Source of the DNA: Candidatus Tayloriibacteriota bacterium
GTDB taxonomy: Bacteria; Patescibacteriota; Minisyncoccia; Phycocordibacterales; PALSA-1337
Length of the DNA: 64,000 nucleotides
Assembly: GCA_903857825.1 (NCBI GenBank)
Contig: CAIOGI010000009.1
Coordinates: forward strand, 7,203-71,202
Reading direction: 5' to 3'
Shown: positions 524-46,572 of the stretch, piece by piece
Layout: each line of letters opens with the position of its first letter
Position numbering within the stretch: position 1 is the stretch's first letter
Notes under the pieces: generated by a model
Told to the model about the DNA's origin: nothing
The model's database searches: none
Seen by the model: the letters and a program-made list of their open reading frames with translations, nothing else
Translations under genes and position numbers: made by a program

Positions 524-645
524 ATAATTTTAATTATTAAATAATTCTCCCCCGCCTTCACCAAATGCTCCACCAAAATATTCGTATACCCCATTTCATA
601 TCGGTACCATGCTGGCAGATTTTTCATGTTTTTCGACTTTTTCAT
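520..645 (-). pseudogene. displaced GAPDH C-terminal fragment A (att remnant)
   Basis: Translates to MKKSKNMKNLPAWYRYEMGYTNILVEHLVKAGENYLIIKII. The intact gap at 48030-49022 ends ...LAWYDNEMGYTNTLVRHVIEAGKLI. The 21 nt tattcgtataccccatttcat (578-598) are identical to 48071-48091. Confidence 0.7.
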
Positions 646-975
646 AACTTTATTTTAACACGAGATTCAATTTGATTTAAATTCCTAGTACGCTCGTCTT
701 TCAAAATAGCAATAACATTGTGACCTTGAAAGGCGAGCGAGGATTGGAAATTTAGCTGTCAAAGTTCGTTAACATCATCATAAACAAACGCTTGTTTAAT
801 AGCAAGCGTCAAAATACGGCCTTTTTTATGGCCTTAATTCGCCTTTTCTTTCCACTCAACTTCCCCATCAAGCTGAAGTGTTTTTTGCCATATTTGCGGA
901 TCGTTGTTGATCCACCCTTACGACCTAGCTGTTGCGCTGCCTTGTTTTTCACATGTTTATTATAACAGACATAAA

Positions 976-1968
976 CTAGTAGTGAAGTGCTTTAGTTCTT
1001 GGCATTTTGTATTTTCGCATTCTTTGATTCCTTGGTACATTTCTGAATGCATCATATCGTCTCTGCAAATCGGGACCAGTCATCATGGTATAAATCATCG
1101 AGCTCTCCAAGCTGGAATGGCCAAGAATATTTGAAACATCTGAATTCGATCCGCCTTTGTTTACAATATCACGACCCATGAAATGTCTCATAGAGTGAGC
1201 ATTCAGAGTTGGTATGCCAGCACGGTTAGAATTTGTGCGTAACATTTCAGCAACTCCTACCACGGACATTCTTCGTCCTCTTACTGCATTTTGTCCACAT
1301 TTAGAGATCGATATAAATAAGGCATCAAGATCTTCAAAAGTAAAAAGTGAAAACAAATGTCTTCGTTTTTTGACCCATCTCTTTAGAAGAGCATTCGTGC
1401 TTGGTGTCCAGAATATTTCTCGGATCGGACGACGGCCACGAGATTTTTCAGTTCTGATCAGGGCTGTTCTCTTGCTCAAATTTAGGTCGCTTACATTGAG
1501 TGATAGTATTTCTCCATTTCTCGCGCCAGTATCCCATAGCAATGCCATCAGAGCACGATTTCTAATATGATGCGGTTTATTATCCTTCGGTATGGAGTTA
1601 ATAAGTTTTCTATATCCCTGTTCTGTTGCAATACGTGGTATGTTGTACTCCTTACGAGGAGTAGGTATAAGTGATTCGTTAATCACATTGAATTTCTGTA
1701 GGTTATAAAATTCAAAGAATTTCTTAAGCGCTAATGTGACAATAATTATGCCGTTCCGCTTCCAGCCGAGATCTTTCATCATATTCAAATAGTTCATCAC
1801 GTCATTGAGCGTGATGGATTCGATATGCGGATTACGCAAGTAGAGGCAAAATATTTTGAGAACCTTGTCATATCTAACTACGGTATGACTGGATACCTTG
1901 ATCTGTCTCCAATTGCTAAATTCATTTATTGCGTCTTTGAATAACATAATGGCAACCAAAAAGTCCAC
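976..1968 (-). CDS. int: tyrosine recombinase / phage-type integrase (XerC/D family)
   Basis: C-terminal catalytic motifs HSMRHFMGRDIV ... LGHSSLESSMIYT (R..H..R..Y). The ORF track uses GTG at 1968; an in-frame ATG at 1948 (MLFKDAINE...) is the more likely start. Confidence 0.85.
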   Translation of the reverse strand: MDFLVAIMLFKDAINEFSNWRQIKVSSHTVVRYDKVLKIFCLYLRNPHIESITLNDVMNYLNMMKDLGWKRNGIIIVTLALKKFFEFYNLQKFNVINESLIPTPRKEYNIPRIATEQGYRKLINSIPKDNKPHHIRNRALMALLWDTGARNGEILSLNVSDLNLSKRTALIRTEKSRGRRPIREIFWTPSTNALLKRWVKKRRHLFSLFTFEDLDALFISISKCGQNAVRGRRMSVVGVAEMLRTNSNRAGIPTLNAHSMRHFMGRDIVNKGGSNSDVSNILGHSSLESSMIYTMMTGPDLQRRYDAFRNVPRNQRMRKYKMPRTKALHY

Positions 1969-1996
1969 TCGATGCTACTCAAAGTGGACTTTTGGT
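1956..1996. promoter_or_regulatory. strong hairpin (14-15 bp stem, 12 nt loop) at the integrase 5' end
   Basis: accaaaaagtccact-cgatgctactcaa-agtggacttttggt. No T-run follows, so it is not a terminator. It overlaps the integrase start region. Confidence 0.4.
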
Positions 1997-2296
1997 GGCT
2001 GTCAGCTCAACGAGCATCTTGCCATTCCCTAGCTAGGGAGACGTAGTCTTACGACCACATCATTTACATTTTCCCCTATCCTTTCGGAAATAGCAAGGCA
2101 ATGTTAATCAAAAGTCCATTGGTAGCATCTGGCTAGAATAGCCTGATCCCTTTCGGGTACAATGGAATAATATTCGGTTGTCACTACATCCTAGTGTAGT
2201 GTCTAGCCATTGTCAAGAAGGATTATTCATTATGTAGTGTTGTTAAAGCAAAAATACTATATTGTCAATCAAAATAAGGGTATTTTGACCATTCCA

Positions 2297-2331
2297 TAAA
2301 AAAGTCGCAACGGTTTTTAGGCGTTGCGACA
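2297..2331 (-). terminator. rho-independent terminator downstream of ORF 2356-3372
   Basis: On the minus strand: GTCGCAACG-cctaaaaac-CGTTGCGAC followed by TTTTTTAT. Confidence 0.5.
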
Positions 2332-2355
2332 GATTTTTGACGGAATAGACACAGA

Positions 2356-3372
2356 TTAATCCAGTCTTTTCCGCATTTCCTTCAAGAACCAGATTACCTC
2401 GGTATTTAGGGTCGGCAGAGGCTCATTTGTGCCCACCTTTACTGGTATAGAGACCCTTGGATGGATTCCCAGAAGATCCCCTATCACGATGATCCGACCA
2501 CTTTCTTTGCTGATACGGTTGAATAGGTCGATTGCAACATTCAGGAAGGTGACTGATAGCTCCCGAGCATTCTCGGCAGGCATGCTTGTCCACTTTTCCA
2601 TCATACCAAATGGTAAAATGTAAGGATAGGCACAACTGTGGCTTTCCGCTGTTTGAACCGGCGCGAAGCTATGAGCTACATGCACACCGACAACACGTCC
2701 GCATCCAGGAACGAATGGGATAAGGTCGCGGTCGGCGATCCACTCGAACAGATTTTCGAAAGCATGAACGATCACGAGCTCGCCTTTGAAGGCTTTCTCG
2801 ATGACCGCCTTAGCCCCGATATCACAGAAGCCAACGATGACTGTAACAACATTTACGCCACGGGCTTCGAGCTCCTTGAGAATGTAAAGACAGGTATTGC
2901 CCCTGAATGCCCCTTCCTTGGCAAGAATCACGGGGCGGCCTGCAATTCTAAGGGTCAGATCGTCAAACTGCTTGTCGAGGTAATCAAAGCCTGGACGCGG
3001 ACCGTACCCGAGCATTTTGCCGTCCCTATCAAAGAGCCGGTTAATGCTTAGGTTCAGACCTTCCTGATTCGGATTCAAATCGTCCATCTCTGAGCAGGTG
3101 ACCAGAACGGCATGCCGATTATTCACAGCGATACATTCATGGACTTGATCCCAGATTTCTAACCTGAGATCATTCTTGTCGACGGGGTGAATCGCAGCAT
3201 TCGGAAATGCACGAGTTACCCTCTCGAGAAGACTTTGGTGCAGATGTCCGAATATTGGATCATCCAGATTCGGGACCGTCAGACCTTTCGATAGGAACGA
3301 TTGTAGACCGCTTGCTACGTCAAAGGAAACCACGCAGGTTCCCTGACGAGCTACTGGACTGGCAGATTGCAT
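2356..3372 (-). CDS. hypothetical protein (higher-GC gene next to the integrase); function not recognised
   Basis: 338-aa ORF with coding-like composition. No motif assignable with confidence. Confidence 0.45.
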   Translation of the reverse strand: MQSASPVARQGTCVVSFDVASGLQSFLSKGLTVPNLDDPIFGHLHQSLLERVTRAFPNAAIHPVDKNDLRLEIWDQVHECIAVNNRHAVLVTCSEMDDLNPNQEGLNLSINRLFDRDGKMLGYGPRPGFDYLDKQFDDLTLRIAGRPVILAKEGAFRGNTCLYILKELEARGVNVVTVIVGFCDIGAKAVIEKAFKGELVIVHAFENLFEWIADRDLIPFVPGCGRVVGVHVAHSFAPVQTAESHSCAYPYILPFGMMEKWTSMPAENARELSVTFLNVAIDLFNRISKESGRIIVIGDLLGIHPRVSIPVKVGTNEPLPTLNTEVIWFLKEMRKRLD

Positions 3373-3461
3373 AGGAACCTCCCTTTCTTGTGGTTGTTGA
3401 GTTGACTACGTTGAAAGAACACATCTGCTCTAGTCTATATTGGAATCAGCGAGAATGCTAC

Positions 3462-3779
3462 TTATTTATCCTCACCCTTGAGTCGCTCAATCATCATCTT
3501 GTATCCTCCACATCCTTCCTTCAGCCAGCGGTTGATCTTTGTAATGGTTACTGGAGATTCACCTGTTTCTTCTTGAATCTGTGTAAAAGGCACACCAGCG
3601 TAGAGTTTTTTAGCGACTTCCCAACGCATAGCGAATTCTCGGAGATCCCGTTCGCTCATAAGGTCTCGAAAAAAAGCTTTAAGTTCATCCTCGTTTTTGA
3701 TAGATAAAAAAGCCTTGAGCAAATCAGGAGATTTATTCTCTAATTCAGACCATATTCCATTTTTTTCTTCTTCAGTCAT
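3462..3779 (-). CDS. TrpR-like DNA-binding protein (YerC/YecD family)
   Basis: FRDLMSERDLREFAMRWEVAKKLYAGVPFTQIQEETGESPVTITKINRWLKEG matches the YerC/YecD TrpR-like fold. Confidence 0.6.
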   Translation of the reverse strand: MTEEEKNGIWSELENKSPDLLKAFLSIKNEDELKAFFRDLMSERDLREFAMRWEVAKKLYAGVPFTQIQEETGESPVTITKINRWLKEGCGGYKMMIERLKGEDK

Positions 3780-3884
3780 AGATACATTTTATCACTTGTT
3801 ATTAATCAAGCAAAGCCGACATGTTCAAATCGATATGAAATGAGGACATTACTCAATTTTTTATATATATGGTAATTATACCCT

Positions 3885-4187
3885 ATGCCCATATATAAAA
3901 TAGATCCGTTCAAGGAAGCAAGAAAGAACGCCCATATCTGGCGTGGCGAGAATGCCACCATCTGGTACAACGAAAAGCTTGATGGATCGTTCTCTGTTCT
4001 GGTGCTATACGAATTCGGGGATAAAAAACGCAGGCTTTTTTTGGAAATCAACGATCAGGATCGGCTTATAGAATTCAAAAATGATGATTTGCTATCGGAA
4101 CAATTTTCATCATTACTACAAGAAATTCTCACTATAGAAAAGTTAATTTCAAATTCAAAAGATTTGACTGGGTCTTTACCCTTCTGA
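3885..4187 (+). CDS. hypothetical protein
   Basis: 100-aa ORF, the only plus-strand gene in this block. No recognisable domain. Confidence 0.3.
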   Translation: MPIYKIDPFKEARKNAHIWRGENATIWYNEKLDGSFSVLVLYEFGDKKRRLFLEINDQDRLIEFKNDDLLSEQFSSLLQEILTIEKLISNSKDLTGSLPF

Positions 4188-4198
4188 TTCCATCACCC

Positions 4199-5233
4199 CT
4201 ACTGAGTCTGCTCAAATGAATAATTGACGCTCTGGCTAATCGAAGTATTTTTATTGCTAAAATAATTGTTAAATATAAATACTGCACCGATAATAGCCAC
4301 AACTGCAAGTCCGTTGGTGATAAGATCAGGATGTTTTAAATTAAAATTAATGGCAGTATGCAGAACCAACGCCAATAACACTATACCGAGAATAATATAC
4401 AATATAATATTGAATGAATGATGTGGTGAAGCGACGATCCGTTCAAAAAACGAAGGTTCATTTTGATTTTGAGAAGAGACTTGGGCATTATCTGAAGATT
4501 CAGAAATAACCTTATCAGGTATCGTCTGGGTCTTATCATTTGCTTCGGGAATAGCTGTTTCAGCACCTAGAACATTTTCTGTAGGCATATCAATAGCTAC
4601 CGATTGCGTAATAGCTTGAGTATGCACTTCGTCTTTATATGCCATAGCTACTGTTTTAGTTGGCTTTGGGTTTGCGTACACTTGGGCGATAAATACCGTC
4701 TCCCTGCCTTCAAACATCCCGGTTGCCACCCCTGTTCCGACCTCTCGGTATGATGCTTTTACGATGTTTGCCCGATGGGTCGGCGAATTCATCCAGGCTT
4801 TAGTGACATCTTCCGAATCAGTAAAATTAATAGCCAAATTTTCGCCGGCATAATCATATTGATACCCGACAGTATTTAGCCAGTGCCAGGGCGTTATTCC
4901 TTCTGGGCTCGTATGTGCAAAATATCCTTTTTTGGCCATGTCATCGGCTTTCAATTGAGCCGCTTCAGTCAAAAGCGGACTTACAACGAGATCAGGAAGT
5001 TTATTGTGTTCTCTTTCTTCATTTGTCAGGGTGGCAAGAACGGCTGGCAGAACACTAGCGAGATTGGAATTTTGAACAATAGCAACAAATGTTATAGTCG
5101 GTACAATGAAAGCAAGAAGTTCAAGAACCAAAACAATGCCGACTATAGATTGAGCGTTTTTCCCATGCAAAAAATGCGGCCGAAAGTCGTTTCCATGATG
5201 AGGTATAAAATGTTTTTTCAACCAGGAAATCAT
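4199..5233 (-). CDS. CAP/SCP/PR-1 domain protein with N- and C-terminal TM segments
   Basis: GYFAHTSPEG...WMNSPTHRANIVKASYREVGTG is the CAP (YkwD-like) signature. Hydrophobic N- and C-termini. Confidence 0.6.
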   Translation of the reverse strand: MISWLKKHFIPHHGNDFRPHFLHGKNAQSIVGIVLVLELLAFIVPTITFVAIVQNSNLASVLPAVLATLTNEEREHNKLPDLVVSPLLTEAAQLKADDMAKKGYFAHTSPEGITPWHWLNTVGYQYDYAGENLAINFTDSEDVTKAWMNSPTHRANIVKASYREVGTGVATGMFEGRETVFIAQVYANPKPTKTVAMAYKDEVHTQAITQSVAIDMPTENVLGAETAIPEANDKTQTIPDKVISESSDNAQVSSQNQNEPSFFERIVASPHHSFNIILYIILGIVLLALVLHTAINFNLKHPDLITNGLAVVAIIGAVFIFNNYFSNKNTSISQSVNYSFEQTQ

Positions 5234-5300
5234 ATCGTGTTCAATTATACAACAATCCCCCGCCCTTATAAAGATGCGGGGGATTGTATATAAAGCCTTA

Positions 5301-5732
5301 CTATCCGTTGATCTCTGCTCTGGTCAGAGGACCAAAGAATCCAGTGACATATCCGATGCCTGGATGTGCTGCTTGAAACGCTTTCAGCGCCGCAAAGGTG
5401 ACTGGACCGAAATAGCCAGTATCAGTGGGATGCTTGAAAAAGCCTTCAGCGCGGAGGAGTTTCTGGAGCTCCATCACCTCATTGTCTTGCATGCCCATAC
5501 GCAAGTCTTTTGTGAAGAGGAATGTCTCCGCTCCCAAGACTCGAGGGGTTGCAACTGTTACAACGGGCACAGGAACATACCAACCTCCACCACCGCCACC
5601 ACTACTGTAACTACCACTGCTGCTGCTACTGCCACTACTTCCGTAGCCGTACGCCGTACCAAAACCAACTGCTGAAATCAGCACAAGGCTAAGTGCTGTT
5701 AGAGTTGATTTTATGAATATTTTTTTGTTCAT
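5301..5732 (-). CDS. secreted peptidoglycan-binding domain protein with a Gly/Ser-rich linker
   Basis: Signal peptide, then a poly-G/S stretch, then a PG_binding_1-like region (MELQKLLRAEGFF...GYFGPVTFAALKAFQ). Confidence 0.6.
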   Translation of the reverse strand: MNKKIFIKSTLTALSLVLISAVGFGTAYGYGSSGSSSSSGSYSSGGGGGGWYVPVPVVTVATPRVLGAETFLFTKDLRMGMQDNEVMELQKLLRAEGFFKHPTDTGYFGPVTFAALKAFQAAHPGIGYVTGFFGPLTRAEING

Positions 5733-5854
5733 AATTTTTTATTTGGCGATATTATTAAAGCCAAACATTTATTAATAATAATTATACTATAGACCAAACG
5801 CGAAGTTAAGGCTTTTATTCACGTTCCAAACATGTTACCATAAAAGAAAGTTAT

Positions 5855-7363
5855 ATGCAAGAGTCAACTTATCCACAAACAAAAAGGACAAATCTAACAT
5901 ATGGCCTACTGGCTGTGTTCTCTGCCGTTCTGATCTTGGGCGGTTTTTTTCGACTCTATAATCTGGGATCTCAGTCATATTGGATGGATGAAGGATATAC
6001 AATCAACGCGGTCAAGGCGATCCAAGAAAAGGGTTCGACAATTCTTGATTCAGGTCTTCCTTATTTTTGTCCTATGTACTGTTATCCGACGGCACTTATA
6101 TCAAACGCCTTAGGTGCTTCGCCGACAAGTTATCGCTTACTTTCAGTTTTGACAGGTCTGGCATTCATTGTAGCAATGTTTTTTATTACGCGAAAATTGT
6201 TCAATCAGAATGTAGCCATGTTAACATCTGTAGCACTGACTTTTTCATATTGGCAGATCGCATGGTCGCGCCAAGCTCGCTGGTACACCCTGTTTGCTTT
6301 ATTCTTCTGGGTTGCGCTTTATTTTTTTCATCAATCACTTTATGGAGAAAAGAACAGAGCTTGGCATGGTATTTTTGCTGTCGTTTTCACTATCTTCGCA
6401 ATTATGACTCATGGCTTGGGATACCTCTTGCCCTTGATATTCATCGGCTGGATCCTGATTGATCGAATATTCTTAGGCAAAAAAATGAACTTTGGATACC
6501 TGATCAAGGTGATCAGTACCATAGTTGTCTTGGCTACAATCTCGCTAGTATTTCTATCGCAAAAGTTTGGAATTCATTATGAGCTTCCCTACTATGTCAG
6601 TTTTTACATAAGAGCTTATTGGCTTTTCTTGATATTTTTGATAATCGGATTCTTTGCGATTACGCATTCAATGAAACGAGAAATGTATTTCTTACTTTTT
6701 GTTCTATTATCGTATCTTATTCCTCTCTCATTTCTAACAAACATAGTCCATTACAGATACCTTTTTCATGTCACTCCAGTATTCATACTGCTTGGCACAG
6801 CTGGCATGTTAGCGATCAATGATAATTTGAAAAATAACTACACGAAATCATCATTTTGGATCGTACTCACTATCCTATTCTTTACTATCGGCGGCGGAGT
6901 CTTTATTCCACGTACTGAATATTTTTTGGAATCCGATAATCCAGAAACAATCGGTGAGAGACCATCGTACGCCTATACACCGCAACCAGATTGGAATGCT
7001 GCATATGAATTTCTCGAGATAAACAGAGAGGAGGGAGACATTGTCATATCAAGTCAGCCGCAATTTACCAAGATTTTTCTTAATGATCCAGGATATTGGA
7101 TCAAGTACGACTATCTTGGTTTTGCAGACCAGGTAAAGGAACCTACAGGCGACACTGAATACTATGTTGGAGCAAAAGTAATTGATGATCTACAGGAACT
7201 TCAGGTAATTGCTTCGTCTGCGCATGGTTTTGTTATATTCGATCATATGTCCGCGGATGGAAAGATTGCGGAAAATATTATCAGCTACATTCGAGACAAT
7301 TTCAAGTTGGTGTTTGAAAAAAAGACAAACCCTTGGTCAGAGGTGTGGATTTATAAATTCTAA
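5855..7363 (+). CDS. GT-C fold integral membrane glycosyltransferase-like protein (ArnT/PMT, GT39/83-like)
   Basis: Eleven or more predicted TM helices. The N-terminal loop YWMDEGYTINA resembles the polyprenyl-P-sugar dependent GT-C transferases. Confidence 0.5.
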   Translation: MQESTYPQTKRTNLTYGLLAVFSAVLILGGFFRLYNLGSQSYWMDEGYTINAVKAIQEKGSTILDSGLPYFCPMYCYPTALISNALGASPTSYRLLSVLTGLAFIVAMFFITRKLFNQNVAMLTSVALTFSYWQIAWSRQARWYTLFALFFWVALYFFHQSLYGEKNRAWHGIFAVVFTIFAIMTHGLGYLLPLIFIGWILIDRIFLGKKMNFGYLIKVISTIVVLATISLVFLSQKFGIHYELPYYVSFYIRAYWLFLIFLIIGFFAITHSMKREMYFLLFVLLSYLIPLSFLTNIVHYRYLFHVTPVFILLGTAGMLAINDNLKNNYTKSSFWIVLTILFFTIGGGVFIPRTEYFLESDNPETIGERPSYAYTPQPDWNAAYEFLEINREEGDIVISSQPQFTKIFLNDPGYWIKYDYLGFADQVKEPTGDTEYYVGAKVIDDLQELQVIASSAHGFVIFDHMSADGKIAENIISYIRDNFKLVFEKKTNPWSEVWIYKF

Positions 7364-7366
7364 AAA

Positions 7367-8497: not shown

Positions 8498-8498
8498 A

Positions 8499-14705: not shown

Positions 14706-14779
14706 GTTTTAAAGTATAACACATAATATATTGGTTGTCTATTTATCGTGACTAAGGCTTTTGATTTTAAATCATCTAC

Positions 14780-15148: not shown

Positions 15149-15191
15149 AATAAATCTATAATTCTTCTGCTAATCTATTAACATTTTTTTA

Positions 15192-32360: not shown

Positions 32361-32469
32361 ATGTATGATGTTTCCCTATTGGCTTGTCAGCCCTTTCAAG
32401 TTCGACTTGAGTTGGAATCGGACGATCCCGTCTCAACAAGAAAGCTATGGTGTAGAAAAGGGTTAGCCT

Positions 32470-32748: not shown

Positions 32749-32829
32749 ACGTTATATTGCTTAATTGATAAAATCTGATATTTGTTTTTACTTTTCGGAA
32801 TGAAGGTAAAAACATACTCAGAGAAAGAA

Positions 32830-35137: not shown

Positions 35138-35159
35138 GGTTTTATTTATTTTTTATTAA

Positions 35160-37382: not shown

Positions 37383-37976
37383 ACCTTCTTCGTGAGAAGA
37401 AGACTTACATCACAAGCCCTCTGGGGTATCCAGTCGGACTATACGAACACAATTTTGAAAGGTACTGTTACATCATATCGGACCAACAACATTCACACCA
37501 GAGAGTGTGTGGATAAATAATTTCATTGAAAAATGTTGCTGTTCCTATATCGTGACATGTTCCTGATCATCAATATCCATGCTTTTACGAAGTAGTTCAT
37601 TTCTCCTATCTCCCAACTTCTTCTCAAGACGAATTATTTCTTCATCGGTTCCATGAGCAAGTGTTTGACTGATATATTCCATGTCAGGATTTTCACCATA
37701 TGCATTACTAAGTTCGGCCACATGATTCATCACTTCTTTTTTTGTATCTTCTATATTCATAACAATATTGTACCAATAATTTATTTTTTTTGCATTCCTA
37801 TAGTTCCTTTACCTCAAAATCATTCGGATCAGTTGGCTTCTTCTGGACTGTATATTCTACTAGAGTGACTTTCTTTTCATTAACTCTAAGAACAATCTGA
37901 CCATGTGGAATTTTATCGGCAAGCTCCATGATGTCCTGCCATTCTTTCGTTATTTCTTTCATAATTCTGGTTGGTA

Positions 37977-39440: not shown

Positions 39441-39951
39441 CTTCTTTTGAAATAATTCCCCAATTTACAAGGGCATCAAACATTCTCTGTTTTTGTTCAG
39501 GTTCGAGAGGTCTTGAGCGAGCCTCAAGTGCTATCTTTCCTATGTGTCGCTCGAAGATTCCCGCATCCATTTCCGCTCCAAGTATCGCAAGATCGAGTTT
39601 GATGATTGAATTGAGTGCTGCGATCTGGTCCTTGTAGCTTGGTGGAGGCATCCCTTCCTTTTTCAAATCGTCGGTATAGAAAGCGATGCGGACCAACCTA
39701 TCAACAACAATCCTTTGTCGCTCTTTGAGCTGTGCTATGCGACCCGACATTTGTTGCCTATCTACCTGTCGCGCCAAGTCTCCATTAATCTTCCAAATTA
39801 TTCTTGAAAGGTAGTGGAGATTGGCGATTCGTATGCCTTTTTTCTCAAGCGCATCTTGAAGCGAACGCAGGGAAATAAGAGGGTCGATGACGATAGCGTC
39901 TCGCACCGCCCGCATTATTTTTTCTTCTGCCGGTTTGAGAATCTTTGGCAT
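39376..39951 (-). CDS. terminase small subunit, candidate
   Basis: 191-aa HTH-like protein immediately upstream of terL and overlapping it. Confidence 0.4.
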   Translation of the reverse strand: MPKILKPAEEKIMRAVRDAIVIDPLISLRSLQDALEKKGIRIANLHYLSRIIWKINGDLARQVDRQQMSGRIAQLKERQRIVVDRLVRIAFYTDDLKKEGMPPPSYKDQIAALNSIIKLDLAILGAEMDAGIFERHIGKIALEARSRPLEPEQKQRMFDALVNWGIISKEDAETKNTNNGSNPTTAIVVAK

Positions 39952-39967
39952 GTGTATCTTTGTGTAT

Positions 39968-41095
39968 CTATTTTCGTTTGACCCTTGTAAATACTAGCTT
40001 TTCCACGATCGCCTGAACGACGTTTACCGTTACCGCATTACCCAAGCACTTGTACCTTTGAGTGTCGCTTGCACCGAGAGTCCACTCGTCAGGAAAGCCT
40101 TGTAACCGTTCACACTCCATAGGCGTAAGGCGACGAATTTTCTGTAGCCCTTTGACGGCATACAGTCCCGTCTTCGCCCCAAGGCCTCCTGCTTGGCTTG
40201 CAAGAGTCGTGGCTATACCTCTTGCATCATATATTCGACTTCCTTGTGGAAAGTTACGACTAAGTTGTTTCCCATCATCAAGCCATTTCTTATTCTTCTC
40301 GCTCATGACAGCTCCGATATATTTCAAATCTTTATGTGCCGGTCTTTTACCAACATAAGTTCCGTTCGAGTCTGCGGTAACACGTGTCGTGATGGTTGGT
40401 AGGATAATATCCTCGCTTGCGTTTTGGGAGAGAGGAAATACTTCCGGTCTGGGCGTGCCTCTAAGATGTCCGACAATGAAGACTCGCTCTCTGTTCTGGG
40501 GTACTCCGAAATTCTTGCTGTTAAGCACCTGCCATTGGAGGTCATACCCAAGACCATCCAGTGTGCGGAGGATAATGCCGAAGGTACGCCCTTTCTCGTG
40601 AGAGAGAAGCCCTTTAACATTCTCAAGGAGTAGAAGCCGTGGTCTTTTGGTAGCGATAATGCGAGCAATCTCAAAGAACAATGTCCCTCGAGTGTCTTCA
40701 AAGCCCTTTCTCTTGCCGGCAATAGAGAAAGATTGGCAAGGAAAACCTCCAATGAGTAGGTCGAAATCGGGTAGATCTCTTGATTTGATTTTTCTGATGT
40801 CTCCATAATTTGTGTGCTTGAAATATTTTTCATAAATTTTGATTGCGTGTTTGTCGATCTCGGAGTAACCCACGCAAGTAAGCGATTCTTGTCGTAAGCC
40901 GTCGCAGTGATGGTGTTTGCAAGATAGTCCTCCCTCGGTACCAACTTCTTTAGACTTCTTGTATCCTTTACCACCCCGAGCCTTCGAAGTCGCTTTGCCT
41001 CCTCTGTCCTTCTTTCTGTTAACTGTTTCCACATATGCGTTGTGTATGCCGAGTTCGAAGCCTCCAATTCCCGAAAAGAGACTGAAGTACCTCAT
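39968..41095 (-). CDS. DNA cytosine-5 methyltransferase
   Basis: FSGIGG (I), GGFPCQSFS (IV), LLLENV (VI), QNRERVFIVG (VIII). A ~50-aa Lys/Gly-rich insertion with CKHHHCDG follows motif I. Confidence 0.9.
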   Translation of the reverse strand: MRYFSLFSGIGGFELGIHNAYVETVNRKKDRGGKATSKARGGKGYKKSKEVGTEGGLSCKHHHCDGLRQESLTCVGYSEIDKHAIKIYEKYFKHTNYGDIRKIKSRDLPDFDLLIGGFPCQSFSIAGKRKGFEDTRGTLFFEIARIIATKRPRLLLLENVKGLLSHEKGRTFGIILRTLDGLGYDLQWQVLNSKNFGVPQNRERVFIVGHLRGTPRPEVFPLSQNASEDIILPTITTRVTADSNGTYVGKRPAHKDLKYIGAVMSEKNKKWLDDGKQLSRNFPQGSRIYDARGIATTLASQAGGLGAKTGLYAVKGLQKIRRLTPMECERLQGFPDEWTLGASDTQRYKCLGNAVTVNVVQAIVEKLVFTRVKRK

Positions 41096-42402
41096 TGCTT
41101 TATTTTATTAATTCTCTCCCATCTATTGCGTATAACATCGCAGAACTTAGGATCAAGCTCGATCATGTATGCCCGTCGGCCGACCTTTTCCGCTGCAGCC
41201 ATTGTGCTGCCGGACCCTCCGAATGGATCGAGAACGATGTCATTTCTTTTTGTGGAATTGCGAAGCGCTCTCATTGCAAGCCAGTCTGGTTTCTCTGTCG
41301 GATGGAGATAATGAGCTACTGCCTTTCTTGGCATTTCCCAGACGTCGTATTCATTGTCGCCGTAAAATTTATGAGTGCCTTCTTTCCAGCCGTAAATGAT
41401 GCTTTGTGCCGTTTTTGGATCAGGCTTTTTTGCACGAGCTATCCATTCATGCTTGTAGCGATAATCATTCCATCCCATACTCGGCACGTTCTTCACCCAG
41501 ATGATCACTCCGGAATGCTGGAAACCATTTTGAAACATGCTTTGGAGAAATTGTGGATACGAGCTCCAACCTGAGCAGATGTAGAAGGAAGATCCCTCTT
41601 TAGTGTTGAAGAACATCTCATGGAAGGCTCCGTCTATAAATGTCTTGAAATCGGCGTCGTTCATATTGTCGTTTTTGATTGATTCATTGCCTTCGTCTTT
41701 TAATTTCTCGCCACGACTTTTATAGTTGACGTTGTACGGTGGATCAGTGAAGACCATATCAGCTTTTTCCTTTCCGAGAAGTTTTCTATACGTCTCTGGG
41801 TCGGTCGAATCTCCGCAAATCAACCTATGTGACCCGAGCTCATAAATTTCGCCAAGCTTTGAGCGTGGTTCCTTTTCAGATTCATCGCCTTCACCCTCAT
41901 CTTCCTCCTCGTCCTCAAGAGTCTGATCGAGTATCCGACTAATCTCGTCGTCTCGAAATCCTGAGGCGGGAATTGATGGAGATTCTTTGAGATCAACAAT
42001 TATTTCAAAGAGCTTTTTTTCATCCCACTTTCCCTTTATTTTATTTAGTGCAAGATTGAGGAGCTTTTCTTCTGCAAGGTGCAAATCCACGAGATTTGCG
42101 GGAATATAGGCCACTCCATCCTTGGTTTCTATGCCCTTTATAGCCTCACTTTGGGCCACAAGCCCCTCTACGGCGGTAGTTCTTTGGTGACCTCCTACCA
42201 GGACCCATTTTCGGTCGCCACATTCGTCACAGGTGTGAGTGTTTACCACAACAGACTCCACAAAGCCGAAGGTCTTGATACTTGTCTTCAAGGCCGCCAT
42301 TTCGATCTCTGGCATGATGCGGGGATTGTATTCAGCGCGCCTCAGGTCGGTTATTTTAATTTTGGTCGCTTCCATAGGTTTCTGCGAATTTGATTCGCGC
42401 AT
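41092..42402 (-). CDS. ParB-like nuclease domain fused to a beta-class N6A/N4C DNA methyltransferase
   Basis: N-terminus VLVGGHQR (ParBc). MVFTDPPYN (motif IV) precedes LDPFGGSGST (motif I), which is the beta-class order. Confidence 0.8.
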   Translation of the reverse strand: MRESNSQKPMEATKIKITDLRRAEYNPRIMPEIEMAALKTSIKTFGFVESVVVNTHTCDECGDRKWVLVGGHQRTTAVEGLVAQSEAIKGIETKDGVAYIPANLVDLHLAEEKLLNLALNKIKGKWDEKKLFEIIVDLKESPSIPASGFRDDEISRILDQTLEDEEEDEGEGDESEKEPRSKLGEIYELGSHRLICGDSTDPETYRKLLGKEKADMVFTDPPYNVNYKSRGEKLKDEGNESIKNDNMNDADFKTFIDGAFHEMFFNTKEGSSFYICSGWSSYPQFLQSMFQNGFQHSGVIIWVKNVPSMGWNDYRYKHEWIARAKKPDPKTAQSIIYGWKEGTHKFYGDNEYDVWEMPRKAVAHYLHPTEKPDWLAMRALRNSTKRNDIVLDPFGGSGSTMAAAEKVGRRAYMIELDPKFCDVIRNRWERINKIKQ

Positions 42403-42733
42403 TGATCTGGTCGACCTTTTCTTTTTCCTTACTTGTATTCACCTTGATTGCAGTAATTGTCTCATCACACGAAAGCGTAAATTCTTCGGCAGCCGCAATC
42501 TTTTTCTCGAGGTCTTTTCTTTTGACCCGAGTGACCTTCGTGGTATCGGCAAGATCGATCTTTTTGAATTCTCCATTGAGCTCATCGAGTTGCTGGAACC
42601 TGTCATCTCGGAGCTTTTCAATATCAGGAATCTTGGAGAGATCAAAGGCGATATTCATCTCCTTGCGCCAGACTTGTTCTTCAAGTTCTGCTAGGAATTC
42701 TTTTTTGTAAACTTTTATATTTTCTTTTGTCAT
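42356..42733 (-). CDS. hypothetical phage protein (coiled-coil)
   Basis: 125-aa ORF. Confidence 0.3.
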   Translation of the reverse strand: MTKENIKVYKKEFLAELEEQVWRKEMNIAFDLSKIPDIEKLRDDRFQQLDELNGEFKKIDLADTTKVTRVKRKDLEKKIAAAEEFTLSCDETITAIKVNTSKEKEKVDQINARIKFAETYGSDQN

Positions 42734-42738
42734 ATTTT

Positions 42739-43152
42739 TTAATTAATTGTGATAATTATTTCGACCCGACCTTTCCCATCCTTGGCGATTTCGCTTTTGA
42801 ATGAGCCGTCGAGATTCTTGTCGTTGTAAAAGAGAGCGTCAGCGATTGAGCCAAAGATATTCTCGGGATCGCCATGAGTGTTGTCTTTCCAGAAAATACG
42901 GATATCCATGACTGCTTTCTGACCCTCATCGAGCTTGATTGGTTTTTTGGCGACCCGCAGGGACCGCACGTAGACTTTGAAATCGATGCTTACGAGGGAT
43001 CGGAGGAATTCATCTTGGACATATACTTTCCATGCAGTGTATCTCTGAGCTTCTGGCGTCCACTGCTGCCGATATGTTTTTCTGATCTTCGGTATGGCAT
43101 TTCCCAGCCTGTCTTCCTGATTGCCGTTTAGTGTAAATGAGAATTGCTTCAT
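42739..43152 (-). CDS. RusA-like Holliday junction resolvase, candidate
   Basis: 137 aa. GDPENIFGSIADALFYNDKNL resembles the RusA catalytic D-x-DN region. Confidence 0.35.
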   Translation of the reverse strand: MKQFSFTLNGNQEDRLGNAIPKIRKTYRQQWTPEAQRYTAWKVYVQDEFLRSLVSIDFKVYVRSLRVAKKPIKLDEGQKAVMDIRIFWKDNTHGDPENIFGSIADALFYNDKNLDGSFKSEIAKDGKGRVEIIITIN

Positions 43153-43715
43153 GGTTTTTGATTAGTGGTTTTTAAAGAGAACCGATCCGTGAGATCCGCC
43201 CTGAGCCTTAAAAACTCAGGGCGGTTATCCACAGGTGGATCGGTCGAACCCCTAATACTAGGTTTCTCTTTGTTTCCTTGGTTTTGTGTGTCTACTAGGT
43301 AGACCGATTTTGGTCTATTCTTTAGACCACTTTTGGTCAATTTTCTAGACTGGTCTACTAGATTGACTACTTTATCCACAGCCATTTCGAGATTAATTTT
43401 ATAGAAATTCCCTTTGCTGTTTTTGATCGAAATGACTACCCCTGCACGGACCAGATTTTTGAGCCCTTGTGAGACTGACTGGCGGGACAATCCAGTGCCA
43501 TAATCAAGAACCACACCTCTCCGGTCCTTGATCCCTTCCATAAATTGCGAAAAACTAATGCGATCCGATTCCTTTTGAAAACCAAAGGTGCGACGGCATA
43601 TGTAAATTAAGCATCGTGCTTCAGCTTCAGGAATAAGAGGAATAATTTTGTCGAGAAGAATATTTGGTAACTGAGTGCTATTCGGTATTAAATTGTATTT
43701 TTTGTGTTCTTCCAT
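43149..43715 (-). CDS. replication initiator (phage replisome-organiser N-terminal-like wHTH); coding region contains ori-like iterons
   Basis: N-terminal YNLIPNSTQLPNILLDKIIPL..EARCLIYICRRTFG pattern. GGTCTA/TAGACC repeats and a 10-bp hairpin lie in its 3' third (43197-43370). Confidence 0.5.
   Translation of the reverse strand: MEEHKKYNLIPNSTQLPNILLDKIIPLIPEAEARCLIYICRRTFGFQKESDRISFSQFMEGIKDRRGVVLDYGTGLSRQSVSQGLKNLVRAGVVISIKNSKGNFYKINLEMAVDKVVNLVDQSRKLTKSGLKNRPKSVYLVDTQNQGNKEKPSIRGSTDPPVDNRPEFLRLRADLTDRFSLKTTNQKP
43285..43370. repeat. iteron-like cluster of GGTCTA/TAGACC direct and inverted repeats (candidate phage origin)
   Basis: tctactaggtagacc, ttttggtcta-ttcttt-agacca, ttttggtcaa, ctagactggtctactag. 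Confidence 0.45.
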
Positions 43716-43828
43716 TTTGATGAAGAAAGAAAGCGCCGGTAGGCGTTATCTTCCCTTGGCCTTCTGATCTCAATCCTCGTGCCGCTGCGGCGAGGACTGA
43801 GTCAGCGGCCAAAGTCAGCGCTTTCTCT

Positions 43829-44974
43829 CTATTTTGTTTTTGCCTTGGCCTCTGTTTTCTTGGCTGGCTTTTCGACCTTTGGTTCCGCTTGTTTCACCTC
43901 CGCAGCTTGTATCTGAATATGCTTCTGCACGAAGTCCTGGACTCTCTTGAATCCAGCTTCCAATGCTTCAGGTCGCAATGATTCGACTACCGTCCAGCTC
44001 ATGGTATCGAATGCGTATTTGATAGCGTCGATTTTGAGCTTCTTCTGGTCAGCAGATTGTCCTGGCCAAACAGAGACAAGATAGTTCTCGATCTCCTCAA
44101 GCCAACGCTTTTTCATCTGCTTCCACTCGTACTTCTCTTCCTCTGTTCGGAAGAGCGTTCCTGCATCACGTTCAGCGGTAGTCTCAAGTTTTTCGGGAGC
44201 TTCGAGCATCACATCGATCGCTGGTGCAAAGTCTTTGAAGTCAGGATTTTCGAATACCTTGCCATCGATTACTGTTGAACGGTCTTTGATGACAATGCCC
44301 TGTCTTGTTACCTTTTTAATCGAACCTCCTTCCATCTCCTGCATGCGTTCCATGAGGACAAGGAGATCTGGCTCGTAGGCTGTCTCTCCCTCGACCTTCA
44401 TCTTTATTCCCGACTTATAAATTTCTCTTTTTCCAGTTTCCTTATTGATCTCATTCTCATATTCATATCCGGCACGTCCGGTCATGATGATGTGATAAGG
44501 ATCGCGAACGAAGACATCGGAGAACTCTGTTTTCCATGTGGGTTTAATCACACCCCAGTCTTGGAATTCCAATCTGGTGCGTCGGACTTTCTCTGCGTAT
44601 GATTTGAGGAAGTCCTCCCAGACATGACTGATAGAGTCGATGATGAGAACATCGCTTGCGCCTTCTCTCATGCGGGTCATCGTTTCTTTGAGGTCGGCGA
44701 GGGATTTTGATTCGCGGACCATTACCTCGATTCCTTCCGCTGCAAACATGGATTTGAGGAACTTAGCCGCTTTCTCGGTGTCAAAGATAATGACTGGTTT
44801 CTTTGATCCGACTCTCTTATGTAGACCTATGGCAACTTTCGCTGCCGTGTAGGTTTTCCCCGTTCCGGCGAAGCCTTCGAAGGCTGCCTTGAAGTAGGGC
44901 TTGGTGTTGCCAATCAATGCGAAGAAGTTATCTTGCACTCTTGGCTTACCTGTTGTTAAATTTTGTGTGTTCAT
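43829..44974 (-). CDS. RecA-fold AAA ATPase (Sak4-like phage replication/recombination protein)
   Basis: Walker A GFAGTGKT, Walker B LIIDSISH. Lys-rich tail. Confidence 0.55.
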   Translation of the reverse strand: MNTQNLTTGKPRVQDNFFALIGNTKPYFKAAFEGFAGTGKTYTAAKVAIGLHKRVGSKKPVIIFDTEKAAKFLKSMFAAEGIEVMVRESKSLADLKETMTRMREGASDVLIIDSISHVWEDFLKSYAEKVRRTRLEFQDWGVIKPTWKTEFSDVFVRDPYHIIMTGRAGYEYENEINKETGKREIYKSGIKMKVEGETAYEPDLLVLMERMQEMEGGSIKKVTRQGIVIKDRSTVIDGKVFENPDFKDFAPAIDVMLEAPEKLETTAERDAGTLFRTEEEKYEWKQMKKRWLEEIENYLVSVWPGQSADQKKLKIDAIKYAFDTMSWTVVESLRPEALEAGFKRVQDFVQKHIQIQAAEVKQAEPKVEKPAKKTEAKAKTK

Positions 44975-45052
44975 TTTGGTTATTGACTTCCCGAGAGGTA
45001 TTTGAGAGAATGGATTTATCTTACGAATCCTATCTCTCCTCGCGGGGAGATT

Positions 45053-45346
45053 TTATTTTTTGAATAATTTAGTAATTCTTTTGTCTGCTGCGGTAAGCTG
45101 AACTTTTGTGGTCTGACCGATGATCTCACTTAACAATCCGTCATAGATGATTCCATGAGCCATAGTTATAGCTTTGTCATCTTCAGCATCGAGGTTAGTT
45201 AGCTTACCCATAAGTTCGCCCGTGTAATGGGCTACCTCGTCTAGTGCTTCAGGAAGGATCCGCTCATCAACTATCGACGGCGCTCTATCCTTCACTAGTT
45301 TCAATGCTTCTCTGGCCAATGCTTTCATTTGTGCTTGTGTTTTCAT
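45053..45346 (-). CDS. hypothetical phage early protein
   Basis: 97-aa ORF. Confidence 0.3.
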   Translation of the reverse strand: MKTQAQMKALAREALKLVKDRAPSIVDERILPEALDEVAHYTGELMGKLTNLDAEDDKAITMAHGIIYDGLLSEIIGQTTKVQLTAADKRITKLFKK

Positions 45347-45632
45347 GTGCGTATCCTATGATTCTCCGTCTGCGGATTTCTGCTTTCTCTCTGAGCATGG
45401 CTTGTCGCTCCTTACTGAGAGATGGGTTCTTCCGTAGTCGAATTTCTTTAGGTTGATAATCTATATCGATAACATCACCTATGTTCAATCGATATTTTCC
45501 TGTGAGCCATTTTCCTTCGAGGATGAGGGCGGGGATGCCATATCTTCTATAGGTAACTGCTCGAGTACTTTTATTTTTGTTTTTCATTGGTAGCATCTGC
45601 CGTTGTACATCGGCTGATCCCGTTAGGGACAA
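45285..45632 (-). CDS. SpoVT/AbrB-like swapped-hairpin DNA-binding protein, candidate
   Basis: GIPALILEGKWLTGKYRLNIGDVIDIDYQPKEIRL resembles AbrB/MazE-type barrels. Confidence 0.3.
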   Translation of the reverse strand: MSLTGSADVQRQMLPMKNKNKSTRAVTYRRYGIPALILEGKWLTGKYRLNIGDVIDIDYQPKEIRLRKNPSLSKERQAMLREKAEIRRRRIIGYAHENTSTNESIGQRSIETSEG

Positions 45633-45638
45633 TGATGA

Positions 45639-45998
45639 TTAGATTCCCTTTCCCTCTACCGCTTCATTAGCAAAATGGTTTTTAAGGAACTGATCTACAA
45701 GTTCACGCTTTCCTTTGCTACCTATGTGCCAAGTTGTAATCTCACAAATTGGCTGATCACTTTTGTATTCGTAGATTGTGACAATGGTTGGTTTTTTCAC
45801 ACCTCCAGTTTTGAAAGCCCATTCAACACGAACTTTACCGTCACCAGATTTCCACTCACCTTCTTGCGTGCAGTCATGTGGCTCTCCAAACTTTTCGACA
45901 AGCTGTTCATATGTAGCTTTTATGTAGCAGTAGAAACCAGATCCCCATACTTCCTTAAATTTAGCTTTTGCGAATTTAGAGTTAATTTTCATAATCAT
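45639..45998 (-). CDS. hypothetical protein (first gene inside the prophage boundary)
   Basis: 119-aa ORF. Confidence 0.35.
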   Translation of the reverse strand: MIMKINSKFAKAKFKEVWGSGFYCYIKATYEQLVEKFGEPHDCTQEGEWKSGDGKVRVEWAFKTGGVKKPTIVTIYEYKSDQPICEITTWHIGSKGKRELVDQFLKNHFANEAVEGKGI

Positions 45999-46039
45999 TT
46001 ATTGGTTAATAATTTCGACCTTTGTAGACGATTCCCGGA

Positions 46040-46066
46040 TATAGAAAAGACCCGGTGTTACCAGGT
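46040..46066 (-). terminator. rho-independent terminator ending the gap-cassette transcript before the prophage
   Basis: Minus strand: AAAGACCTGG-taacac-CGGGTCTTT then TTCTATAT. Located ~40 nt after the stop of fragment B. Confidence 0.45.
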
Positions 46067-46102
46067 CTTTAAATCAAATTATTAAGTTGTGAATCTTTGT
46101 CG

Positions 46103-46177
46103 CTAGACTAATCTACCCGCAGCAATGACATGATTTACGAGGGTGTATGTGTACCCCATTTCATCAATATGCCACGT
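46103..46177 (-). pseudogene. displaced GAPDH C-terminal fragment B
   Basis: Translates to TWHIDEMGYTYTLVNHVIAAGRLV*. Shares taccccatttcat with the gap 3' end. Abuts the stop of ORF 46177-46515. Confidence 0.65.
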
Positions 46178-46515
46178 CAATCTCCATCATATTTTTTATC
46201 GTACTTTCGCGAACCGAAGATCGTAATTAGAATTGGAATTAAAATTAATATCCACGTCCATGAGTCTATGGCTCTAATTGTAAGTTTTTCAACATTGCAA
46301 ACTACTCCACCATAATAACCACAAGGTGATCCTTTGATCATGAACAATATATTTGTGTGAAAGAAATTATCAGTAACATAGAAGATTCCCACCAAAACGA
46401 TTCCAACTGTCATAACAACTGATATGCAGTAAGTAATAAAACCAAGAAAGCTCAAAGAAAAAATCCACTTTATTAGCTTTTTTGTTGGATCACTATTATT
46501 TGTTTTCATATTCAT
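46177..46515 (-). CDS. small integral membrane protein (112 aa), cargo of module 2
   Basis: Three predicted TM helices. Its start lies 6 nt after the stop of fragment C. Confidence 0.45.
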   Translation of the reverse strand: MNMKTNNSDPTKKLIKWIFSLSFLGFITYCISVVMTVGIVLVGIFYVTDNFFHTNILFMIKGSPCGYYGGVVCNVEKLTIRAIDSWTWILILIPILITIFGSRKYDKKYDGD

Positions 46516-46521
46516 TGATTA

Positions 46522-46572
46522 TTAAACTACCCTCCCCGCCTTCACCACATGCTCCACCAACATATTCGTATA
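46522..46572 (-). pseudogene. displaced GAPDH C-terminal fragment C (17 codons)
   Basis: YTNMLVEHVVKAGRVV**. Nucleotides 46531-46572 are ~95% identical to 546-587 of fragment A. Confidence 0.6.

Follow-up and report, generated by a model that had tools for sequence, protein, structure and literature searches.

In the 64-kb stretch of DNA analysed here (the window), two near-identical direct repeats, A and C, derive from the 3' end of the gap (GAPDH) gene as displaced tails, as the first-pass annotation had recognised. Together with a third copy, I, they probably belong to a recurring family of tails in an array of cassettes and a prophage, rather than being the two ends of a single element. 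A tail comprises the last 16-17 codons of gap, and the N-type family to which A, C and I belong reads YTN-x-LVEH-x-VKAG. The features of the array are listed in the table.

Features of the gap array in window coordinates, from the active gene outwards
Feature	Position	Strand	Evidence or remark
gap (GAPDH), intact, 330 aa	48030..49022	(-)	Pfam Gp_dh_N + Gp_dh_C
Tail E, YTNTLVRHVIEAGKLI and stop, gap's last 16 codons + stop	48030-48080	(-)	translation
Core at active gap, ATGAAATGGGGTA, codons N-E-M-G-Y	48079..48091	(-)	exact match
224-aa cargo ORF, first cassette	47352..48026	(-)	no family match
Fragment D, displaced gap, MKLAWYDNEMGYTRTLVRCVIGTNELVK and stop	47155..47241	(-)	core 47207-47219, one mismatch
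147-aa cargo ORF, first gene of D-147-C-112 unit	46706..47149	(-)	no family match
Degenerate core remnant upstream of C	46573..46593	(-)	TGT TAT AAT AAT TAT GTA AAG = CYNNYVK
Tail C, YTNMLVEHVVKAGRVV and stop, coreless, just upstream of 112-aa gene	46522..46573	(-)	repeat search, alignment
112-aa membrane-protein ORF, second gene of D-147-C-112 unit	46177..46515	(-)	homologues elsewhere
Fragment B, TWHIDEMGYTYTLVNHVIAAGRLV and stop	46103..46177	(-)	exact core 46152-46164
Prophage, ~45.5 kb, between B core and A core	600..46151	(-)	phage gene content
Tyrosine integrase of prophage	976..1968	(-)	Pfam Phage_integrase (PF00589) 1.4e-24, Phage_int_SAM_1
Fragment A, LPAWYRYEMGYTNILVEHLVKAGENYLIIKII and stop, arm of A/C repeat	520..618	(-)	exact core 587-599
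200-aa cargo ORF, 5' part, runs off window	1..523	(-)	L094, L097 100% identical to window

The A/C repeats are real. A occupies 547-589 (43 nt) and C 46532-46573 (42 nt), each shifted by one from the coordinates first given, and A starts ctcccccgcc, with five C where four had been quoted. The global alignment gave the 2 substitutions and the 1-nt indel reported before, and the ungapped 40-mer at 550-589 agreed with 46534-46573 in 38 of 40 positions. A search of the window at up to 3 mismatches returned the A and C sites only, with 0.00 expected from 100 dinucleotide-preserving shuffles. The likeness also reaches into the adjoining ATTATTAAA, which had been noted earlier and is present beside both copies; read on the coding (minus) strand, it corresponds to the tail's stop-codon region GTT TAA TAA T. 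Tail identity was then scored over 39 nt starting at the Tyr codon. A miscounted alignment would have brought A/C down to the level of A/B or A/D, but in the matrix A and C were identical at 37/39, far above A/B (20) and A/D (17). Every other in-window pair lay at 17-26/39 (A with E 24; C with B 21, D 18 and E 26). Exactly at the core/tail junction, which is the crossover point, A/C identity falls from 37/39 to 9/27, and such a sharp stop of homology is what recombination there predicts. Relative to C, I and the tail of an unrelated contig described below (L092), A has a +1 G frameshift. At tail position 11, A and C have in common a derived T that is absent from I and L092, which may slightly favour a specific relationship between A and C.

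The gap gene at the head of the array is intact, and its product is 88-91% identical in amino acids to those of Paceibacteria gap genes; its tail E appears to have been supplied by the latest insertion. On both strands of the 64 kb, the 13-nt core occurs exactly at three sites only, 587-599, 46152-46164 and 48079-48091, and apart from the one-mismatch copy at tail D no further copy with at most one mismatch was found. It is repeated in direct orientation at the unit boundaries, with 13/13 matches at A, B and E and 12/13 at D. At tail C only 7/13 positions match; a usable core has been lost there or was never present. The CYNNYVK remnant upstream of C matches the WYDNEMG codons at 12/21 and the other in-window cores at 9-14/27. 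It contains TGTTATAAT, an extended -10-like motif, and a promoter scan gave a match at 46612-46585 (10/12 with TG) that overlaps the region upstream of C. At the homologous place of another array (L087), TGGTATAAT is found.

Between these cores lie small units and one large one. The first cassette measures 872 nt, counted from core E to core D, and its 224-aa ORF is in the same position in all same-population contigs. The next unit has two genes (D tail, 147-aa gene, C, 112-aa gene) and is 1055 nt long between the D and B cores. Since C is without a core, it is a relic inside this unit, in which the 147-aa and 112-aa genes have been fused; the 112-aa part has its own intact core on the downstream side. 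Contig L091, recovered from 2 samples, consists of exactly this 1055-nt stretch, and L090 ends 9 nt from the B-core point, which may hint, indirectly, at excision or circularisation of the unit. A homologue of the 147-aa protein (64%, L109) is likewise encoded downstream of gap, behind a decayed tail. Homologues of the 112-aa protein (71% and 65% identity) are encoded directly behind gap or inside tail arrays (L081/L083, L084-L087), and in other Paceibacteria, too, members of this family are found as cassettes behind gap. In L081 and L087 these homologues are preceded by an E-like and not an N-type tail. The link between tail and cargo is therefore not a strict one, and an N-type tail at the 112-aa gene needs an extra event. 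H-type tails keep TA-type cargo (three such tails in two genomes, L097 and L092), and DUF6922-AbiEii cassettes recur in L097, L092 and L008. The cargo of the island includes membrane proteins, toxin-antitoxin pairs and Fic.

The large unit is the prophage, which is bounded by a complete pair of cores, B and A. It encodes a portal, a protease, a major head protein, a large terminase, a tape measure protein, a minor tail protein and a CI/LexA-like repressor; the precomputed annotation lists Rep_O, ParB/methyltransferases and portal/Mu_F. Its integrase is the only recombinase among the window ORFs searched and is encoded about 370 nt from the A core. In fragment B, the gap-proximal prophage junction, the core separates sequence of the 112-aa unit (upstream) from the tail of the prophage (downstream), whereas in fragment A it separates the phage arm (upstream) from the displaced tail (downstream). 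Tail B is identical at 38/39 to the active gap tail of genome L004, where a prophage 84.6% identical to that of the window abuts gap, and the two gap genes themselves are only about 71% identical. A third case of a gap-adjacent related prophage is L093. In two other genomes, too, tail B thus accompanies related prophages.

The array continues past A. In L094 and L097, which are 100% identical to the window, four more tails (F, G, H and I) come after the 200-aa ORF and precede rpiB; A, which had been assumed to be the oldest tail, is therefore not the oldest. Tail I is located 3.9 kb past the left edge of the window, has an intact core and matches C at 36/39 and A at 35/39. Tail G has the 3' part of this tail type in common with A, C and I. 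With no fewer than nine gap tails, the array occupies the interval from gap to rpiB in this Paceibacteria genome, a variable island of 52 kb. In about 25 relatives the two genes are 5-45 nt apart, and their adjacency is the ancestral state; I, assumed to be the native tail type, is still 1.7 kb from rpiB. The C-type tail was also found, at 27/27, in L092, an unrelated metagenome contig, where it is part of a different array before a different gene and has the same 1-nt difference from A as C has. Three copies at 35-37/39 in one genome are unusual among the arrays examined; in the others (L087/L084 and L008) no tail pair within an array exceeds 31/39.

In the model that we favour, a temperate phage and small integrase-less cassettes would have been inserted successively at the 3' end of gap by site-specific recombination. 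The crossover would take place in ATGGGGTA, within the 13-nt core for N-E-M-G-Y, rather than within GTATACGAATAT. The incoming circle would carry partial upstream gap codons that end in the core, then its own replacement tail and then the cargo. Because the circle brings gap codons and a replacement tail, gap would stay intact and the previous tail would be pushed downstream. The cassettes would be mobile, with a phage-type integrase presumably acting on them in trans, and the order of the insertions is likewise part of the model. How the 112-aa cassette obtained its N-type tail would require an extra event. The likeness of A and C would come from descent from one tail family on cassettes resident in this host lineage, not from a duplication in a single integration event. 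The first-pass annotation had expected all displaced tails to differ. This premise falls away in the model, since tails that travel with cassettes allow cassettes of the same host lineage to carry near-identical ones. Its view that the history is more complex than strictly linear accretion is borne out by a tail type that occurs at least three times (A, C and I), and the data also allow its suggestion that the unit beside C was inserted while gap had an A-type tail.

The other proposal made for A and C was that they are attL and attR of one composite element. The 112-aa gene and the prophage would then have (re-)entered as one unit inside a pre-existing N-type tail after the 147-aa gene, which we judge to be quite improbable. 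In its favour, the DNA enclosed by A and C is exactly the 112-aa gene, tail B and the prophage, the first homologous base is the same in both repeats (G TATAC), the derived T is found in both, and composite excision of tandem elements is documented elsewhere (PMC5704250; PMC13651849). However, both repeats of an attachment pair should contain the core, the only supported recombination site, which is exact at A and absent at C (7/13), and the 27 nt upstream agree at only 9/27. The prophage already has a perfect pair of cores in B and A, and the 112-aa unit has its downstream core. Nor are A and C a unique pair, as I is nearly as similar to both (35-36/39) and G shares the 3' part. A circular or empty-site A-C junction was not found in a shared-block scan of metagenomes, which gave only L092; this negative is weak because the scanned collection did not include the window's own population. 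Viral scans for an A/C hybrid junction were likewise negative, and every long same-population contig shows the full arrangement in the same order. Composite entry by core-by-core recombination is possible, and the A/C similarity would then be no evidence for it.

Alternatively, A, C and I were once different and have been made alike within the chromosome by short-patch gene conversion or unequal recombination. We consider this unlikely, even though the three close copies have no counterpart in the L087/L084 and L008 arrays. The E-like tails of 112-aa cassettes elsewhere make the tail before the 112-aa gene of the window look replaced, and the apparent switch falls between the stop codon and the ATG. 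The longest unbroken A/C match, however, is 14 nt, which is short for efficient RecA-dependent recombination. In addition, the tail in L092, with the same indel state, shows that the type exists outside this genome, and B, D, E, F, G and H have not been homogenised. Mis-joining at the repeated tails during assembly is a concern in principle, given that the sequence is from a metagenome and short contigs break at cores. It is extremely improbable here: the same arrangement is present, 100% identical, in JGI, ENA and Logan assemblies of different samples, and 93-kb and 178-kb contigs run through A, B, C and D. The repeats (at most 42 nt, with exact runs of at most 14 nt) are also probably shorter than the assembly k-mers, for which contig names suggest k=141 in some cases.

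Phages such as e14 or phage 21 integrate into the protein-coding 3' end of icd in E. coli and duplicate the gene end. As in these cases, the phage in the gap array brings a substitute 3' end, the target stays functional and the original end is found at the far junction. Islands also occupy icd and similar loci, and tandem arrays are hard to resolve (PMC9580842). Unlike these, the array described here has gap as its target and mixes one prophage with many miniature cassettes. Tandem accretion is an already known kind of process. Examples are ICESt1/ICESt3 in Streptococcus thermophilus, which occupy the 3' end of fda and are known with cis-mobilizable elements (CIMEs), and phage-ICE tandems. There, a glycolytic housekeeping gene receives elements at its 3' end that supply a new gene end, internal att sites remain after successive insertions, integrase-less units with both att sites (CIMEs) persist beside an integrase-encoding element, and composite excision can occur (PMC5704250; PMC13651849). 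The gap array agrees in that the replacement end comes with the incoming element (gap is intact, and tail B goes with the prophage of L004), and in that an element encoding a recombinase, the prophage with its integrase, is next to the target gene end. It differs in having, within a CPR bacterium, a tailed prophage as the integrase-bearing partner, and in its integrase-less units, which are tiny (0.9-1.1 kb, 1-2 ORFs) and numerous (nine tails or more in the one array). Conjugation genes are absent, and neither an excision product nor a circle or empty site has been seen.

Tycheposons of Prochlorococcus insert repeatedly at one site and push older elements inward, leaving partial target-gene copies between elements and degraded remnants in a streamlined genome, as seen here (bioRxiv 10.1101/2020.12.28.424599). 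They target tRNA genes and each active element has its own tyrosine recombinase, whereas the gap array has a protein-coding target and most of its units are recombinase-less. The array is not a tycheposon: its repeats are gap codons, and the sole tRNA gene of the window, tRNA-Gln at 60158-60229, is away from it. Like integrons, it stacks co-oriented, recombinase-less single-gene units, toxin-antitoxin cassettes included, at one site of a conserved platform. Unlike integrons, it has no intI/attI platform, its sites are gene-end mimics and not attC hairpins, and a housekeeping enzyme has its C-terminus rewritten at every insertion. No attC-like hairpins were detected when the five core-plus-tail regions were folded as ssDNA (z = 0.51, 0.77, -0.06, -0.50 and 0.09). 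The Pfam scan found no recombinase, and hence no IntI, among the 98-aa ORF, gap and the 224-aa ORF at the array head, and the nearby pyrD is a DHO_dh protein according to the contig annotation. The only integrase found is 45 kb from the array head inside the prophage, so that an integron was rejected. The literature searched contained no example of single-gene cassettes arrayed at gap in any CPR bacterium.

A wider interpretation, which we put forward only tentatively and regard as doubtful as a whole, is that the gap-rpiB junction of Paceibacteria is an integron-like cassette platform on a housekeeping gene. Integrase-less mini-units of one or two genes, each with a mimic of the gap 3' end, may be captured, stacked and reshuffled in trans by phage-type tyrosine integrases. 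As capture occurs at the end of gap, every capture would rewrite the C-terminus of GAPDH. The displaced WYDN codons (TGG TAT GAT AAT) may become TGnTATAAT promoters by one G-to-A change, and such promoters may drive the stranded cassette genes. The recurrent N-type tails A, C and I may record cassettes cycling in and out.

For the analysis of such arrays, near-identical displaced tails do not necessarily delimit a single element, and element boundaries are to be read from the crossover core and not from the longest repeat. CPR bacteria (Patescibacteria) have tiny genomes, and little is known of how they exchange genes. The gap locus offers a concrete route, in which the final codons of an essential gene of glycolysis are the target of a temperate phage and of numerous miniature cassettes. 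If the cassettes are indeed mobilised in trans, the locus would be a system of cassette capture that does not depend on integrons.

The host of this stretch is a CPR bacterium of the Paceibacteria/Parcubacteria group, and its GAPDH protein is 84-91% identical to proteins from Paceibacteria MAGs. The gap gene is intact. Downstream of it on the minus strand lie four further fragments encoding the GAPDH C-terminus, here named tails D, C, B and A, with tail E being the end of the active gene. The 42-nt direct repeat reported in the first-pass annotation corresponds to tails A and C. Its near-identity was confirmed, since ungapped 40-mers matched at 38/40 positions, a match for which shuffled sequence gives an expectation of 0.00, and the alignment showed the two substitutions and the 1-nt indel that had been described. 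The coordinates were one base off and are corrected to 547-589 and 46532-46573, and A has five C where four had been quoted. When all tails were compared in an identity matrix, A and C agreed at 37/39 positions from the Tyr codon and every other pair among A-E at 17-26/39. A and C indeed have the adjoining ATTATTAAA in common; read on the coding strand (GTT TAA TAA T), it is the region where the tail's stop codon lies.

Features of the gap locus and the prophage (window coordinates unless a contig is named)
Feature	Position	Strand	Remark
gap	48030-49022	minus	intact
Tail E (active)	48030-48080	minus	peptide YTNTLVRHVIEAGKLI*
Tail D	47155-47241	minus	peptide MKLAWYDNEMGYTRTLVRCVIGTNELVK*
Tail C	46522-46573	minus	peptide YTNMLVEHVVKAGRVV*
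Tail B	46103-46177	minus	peptide TWHIDEMGYTYTLVNHVIAAGRLV*
Tail A	520-618	minus	peptide LPAWYRYEMGYTNILVEHLVKAGENYLIIKII*
Core at E	48079-48091		exact
Core at D	47207-47219		one mismatch
Core at B	46152-46164		exact
Core at A	587-599		exact
Prophage tyrosine integrase	976-1968		
Cell-envelope gene block	2356-19441		integrase-proximal third of prophage
521-aa ORF	19443-21008	minus	repressor-methyltransferase fusion
Three adjoining ORFs	22592-25402	minus	254, 343 and 282 aa
Extended -10 motif	46585-46593	minus	
Extended -10 motif	L087:2010-2030		
Extended -10 motif	L097:12790-12810		
Extended -10 motif	L092		

Exact copies of a 13-nt core, ATGAAATGGGGTA, which comprises the codons N-E-M-G-Y, were found in the window only at E, B and A. 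The D core has one mismatch, and no other site with one mismatch or fewer was present on either strand of the 64-kb window. The B and A cores enclose a prophage of 45.5 kb with genes for a portal, a protease, a major head protein, a large terminase, a tape measure, a minor tail protein and a CI/LexA-like repressor. Related prophages directly adjoin gap in two other genomes: L004, where the prophage is 84.6% identical in nucleotide sequence over many kb, and L093, an IMG/VR contig with an integrated relative that was the sole match of a degenerate tail pattern. Compared with tail B, the active gap tail of L004 has 2 differences between GGGG and the stop codon, scored as 38/39 in the identity matrix; the gap genes of L004 and the window are ~71% identical. 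Since tail B is found beside the related prophages in both genomes, it belongs to the phage. Judged from the stretch common to the window and L004 junctions, the phage crossover would lie upstream of the tail, within ATGGGGTA. A crossover at the tail end, giving cassettes of cargo plus downstream tail, is possible for some cassettes but was rejected for the phage, which keeps tail B in L004 and L093. Neither the integrase search nor a search with a phage-arm-plus-core pattern found a free phage or attP in IMG/VR. In the array rule that we propose, the sequence from one core downstream to the next core would be one inserted unit, and the short piece resembling gap that immediately precedes each core would be part of the unit upstream of that core.

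The prophage itself showed several further features. Its integrase-proximal third carries cell-envelope genes (a GT2 glycosyltransferase, a polysaccharide synthase, PMT_2, a PG_binding_1 protein and a CAP-domain protein) together with a Trp-repressor-like gene, and the envelope-gene block resembles a module for lysogenic conversion, here in a CPR phage. The 521-aa ORF joins a CI/LexA-like repressor part (HTH and UmuD/S24-like) to a DNA methyltransferase domain, an unusual fusion for a prophage repressor. The three adjoining ORFs begin alike, their conserved 5' end being seen as direct repeats D1, D4 and D5 with 72-91% identity over 35-94 nt, and are probably paralogous tail-fibre or receptor-binding genes.

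Tail C has no core: in the equivalent 13 nt, 7/13 positions match, and the sequence upstream of C (TGT TAT AAT AAT TAT GTA AAG) resembles WYDNEMG only faintly. In the 27 nt upstream of the tails, A and C agree at only 9/27 positions, compared with 37/39 inside the tail. The A/C homology thus begins exactly at the canonical crossover point, which is what a displaced tail should show. As C is without a core, there is no usable junction between the 147-aa and the 112-aa genes, and the unit between the intact cores D and B consists of the D tail, the 147-aa gene, C and the 112-aa gene, in total 1055 nt. A contig of 1055 nt from two samples (L091) runs from window position 47212 to 46158 and so covers precisely one period from the D core to the B core; a further contig (L090) ends at 46167, 9 nt from the L091 end, at the B core. 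These ends suggest, short of proof, that the population varies at these cores, and they may stem from excision or circularisation of the unit with the 147-aa and 112-aa genes, or from its presence in only part of the population. In another contig pair the break falls within the 147-aa gene and has an ordinary cause. Two other origins of the 112-aa gene were considered and rejected. C and the 112-aa gene are not the native downstream region of gap, because the 110-aa homologue in the related locus L081, although immediately behind gap, has a core and a decayed tail after it and is therefore a cassette there too. Nor did the gene acquire its first codons from A, since members of the 112-aa family align collinearly from the ATG onwards; the ATATGAAAA shared with A is start-codon context only.

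Contigs with 100% identity to the window continue past its left edge, three of them well past (L094, L097 and L098) and L099 by only a few hundred bases. The continuation in the minus-strand direction beyond window position 1 was read at L097:9800-15560 and L094:10990-12697. In L097, tail A is followed by the 200-aa ORF, whose 5' part is window 1-523, by tail F and a 74-aa ORF, tail G with 426-aa and 105-aa ORFs, tail H with a DUF6922-AbiEii toxin-antitoxin pair, and tail I (YTNTLVEHVVKAGRLI*, with one mismatch in its core). A 134-aa ORF, a Fic protein and a 160-aa ORF then lead to rpiB. The whole gap-rpiB island is ~52 kb. Tail A, previously regarded as the oldest, is not the oldest, since tails F, G, H and I separate it from rpiB. 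Tail I is identical to C at 36/39 and to A at 35/39 positions, and tail G has its 3' part in common with the A/C/I type. A shared-block scan of public metagenome contigs found a sole extra copy, in L092, which matches C at 27/27 with the same indel state and belongs to a separate tail array, where a different small ORF follows it. The tail I and L092 copies show that this is a recurring tail family, the N-type (YTN-x-LVEH-x-VKAG), and A is a member with a private +1 G frameshift. Exact look-ups of the 112-, 147-, 224- and 200-aa proteins and the integrase gave one arrangement, with no phage-free or cassette-free variants in the same population; apparent differences among its contigs were gene-calling differences on 100% identical DNA. 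Samples in which this population occurs include ERZ27313478, ERZ18650584, ERZ18659709, ERR4220617 and JGI 3300045708 and 3300045710.

It had been proposed that A and C are the attL and attR of one composite element containing the prophage and the 112-aa module. This would need a crossover site in both repeats and a special pair. C has no core, tail I and the L092 copy show that the pair is not special, and the prophage is explained by the B and A cores, so the proposal is unsupported. The phage could have arrived jointly with the 112-aa unit through core-by-core recombination; the likeness of A and C, however, lends that scenario no support. The alternative offered in the first-pass annotation, that C was the tail on gap when the next unit arrived, fits the array rule, and the complex array history it anticipated is seen in the recurrence of the N-type tail at A, C and I. 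For the near-identity of A and C, we favour the explanation that cassettes resident in this lineage bring its own tail type with them; L092 supports this. Counting against it, 112-aa cassette homologues have an E-like tail and other arrays have no comparably close tail pairs. For these reasons short-patch gene conversion stays as a rival to the favoured lineage-tail explanation.

Where WYDN codons upstream of displaced tails have decayed, they match the extended -10 motif perfectly, with the sequence TGTTATAAT or TGGTATAAT. Behind H-type tails, TGTTATAAT stands 6 nt (L097 and the third tail of L092) or 7 nt (first tail of L092) before the ATG of toxin-antitoxin cargo. On these consensus matches only, the displaced gene ends may be reused as promoters, possibly for leaderless transcripts.

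The gap-rpiB locus was then compared in 80 related loci. In ~25 related Paceibacteria genomes the two genes are 5-45 nt apart, and in many other relatives the interval contains 0.1-4 kb of variable DNA. In most of these inserts no tail was detectable; DNA therefore also enters the site by other routes, or tails decay completely. A profile search found extra tails in 6/80 representative genomes, with up to four in L008. In L001, the GTDB-representative genome closest to the window, an active E-type tail and a displaced tail lie ~200 nt apart (L001:5110-5316), which would be an insertion carrying little more than a replacement gene end. The 112-aa family is third in the arrays of L084-L087, and the DUF6922-AbiEii pair recurs in those of L097, L092 and L008. 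Homologue searches found almost no relatives of the 200-aa and 147-aa proteins, and the 112-, 147-, 224- and 200-aa proteins had no match in Pfam. Toxin-antitoxin or toxin-like cargo (PemK, Fic, DUF6922-AbiEii) is common in the gap arrays of different genomes (L084:900-3900, L097:12888-14797, L008:11903-12774).

An integron was rejected: the tails showed no stable fold, attC-like hairpin or Rfam family, and there is no intI/attI platform. The array resembles the tandem site-specific accretion of ICEs, IMEs and CIMEs described at gene 3' ends (PMC5704250; PMC13651849), and also phage insertion at icd. It is likewise similar to tycheposon stacking at tRNA genes (bioRxiv 10.1101/2020.12.28.424599), but its target is not a tRNA gene. 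Full-text literature searches brought up no account of a gap-targeted array in CPR. Within the 10 kb fetched around the relatives' arrays, no integrase related to that of the phage was found. The recurrence of small units without a recombinase makes the locus a hotspot where such units accumulate. Its CPR host, its gap target and how many and how small its integrase-less units are make it unusual.
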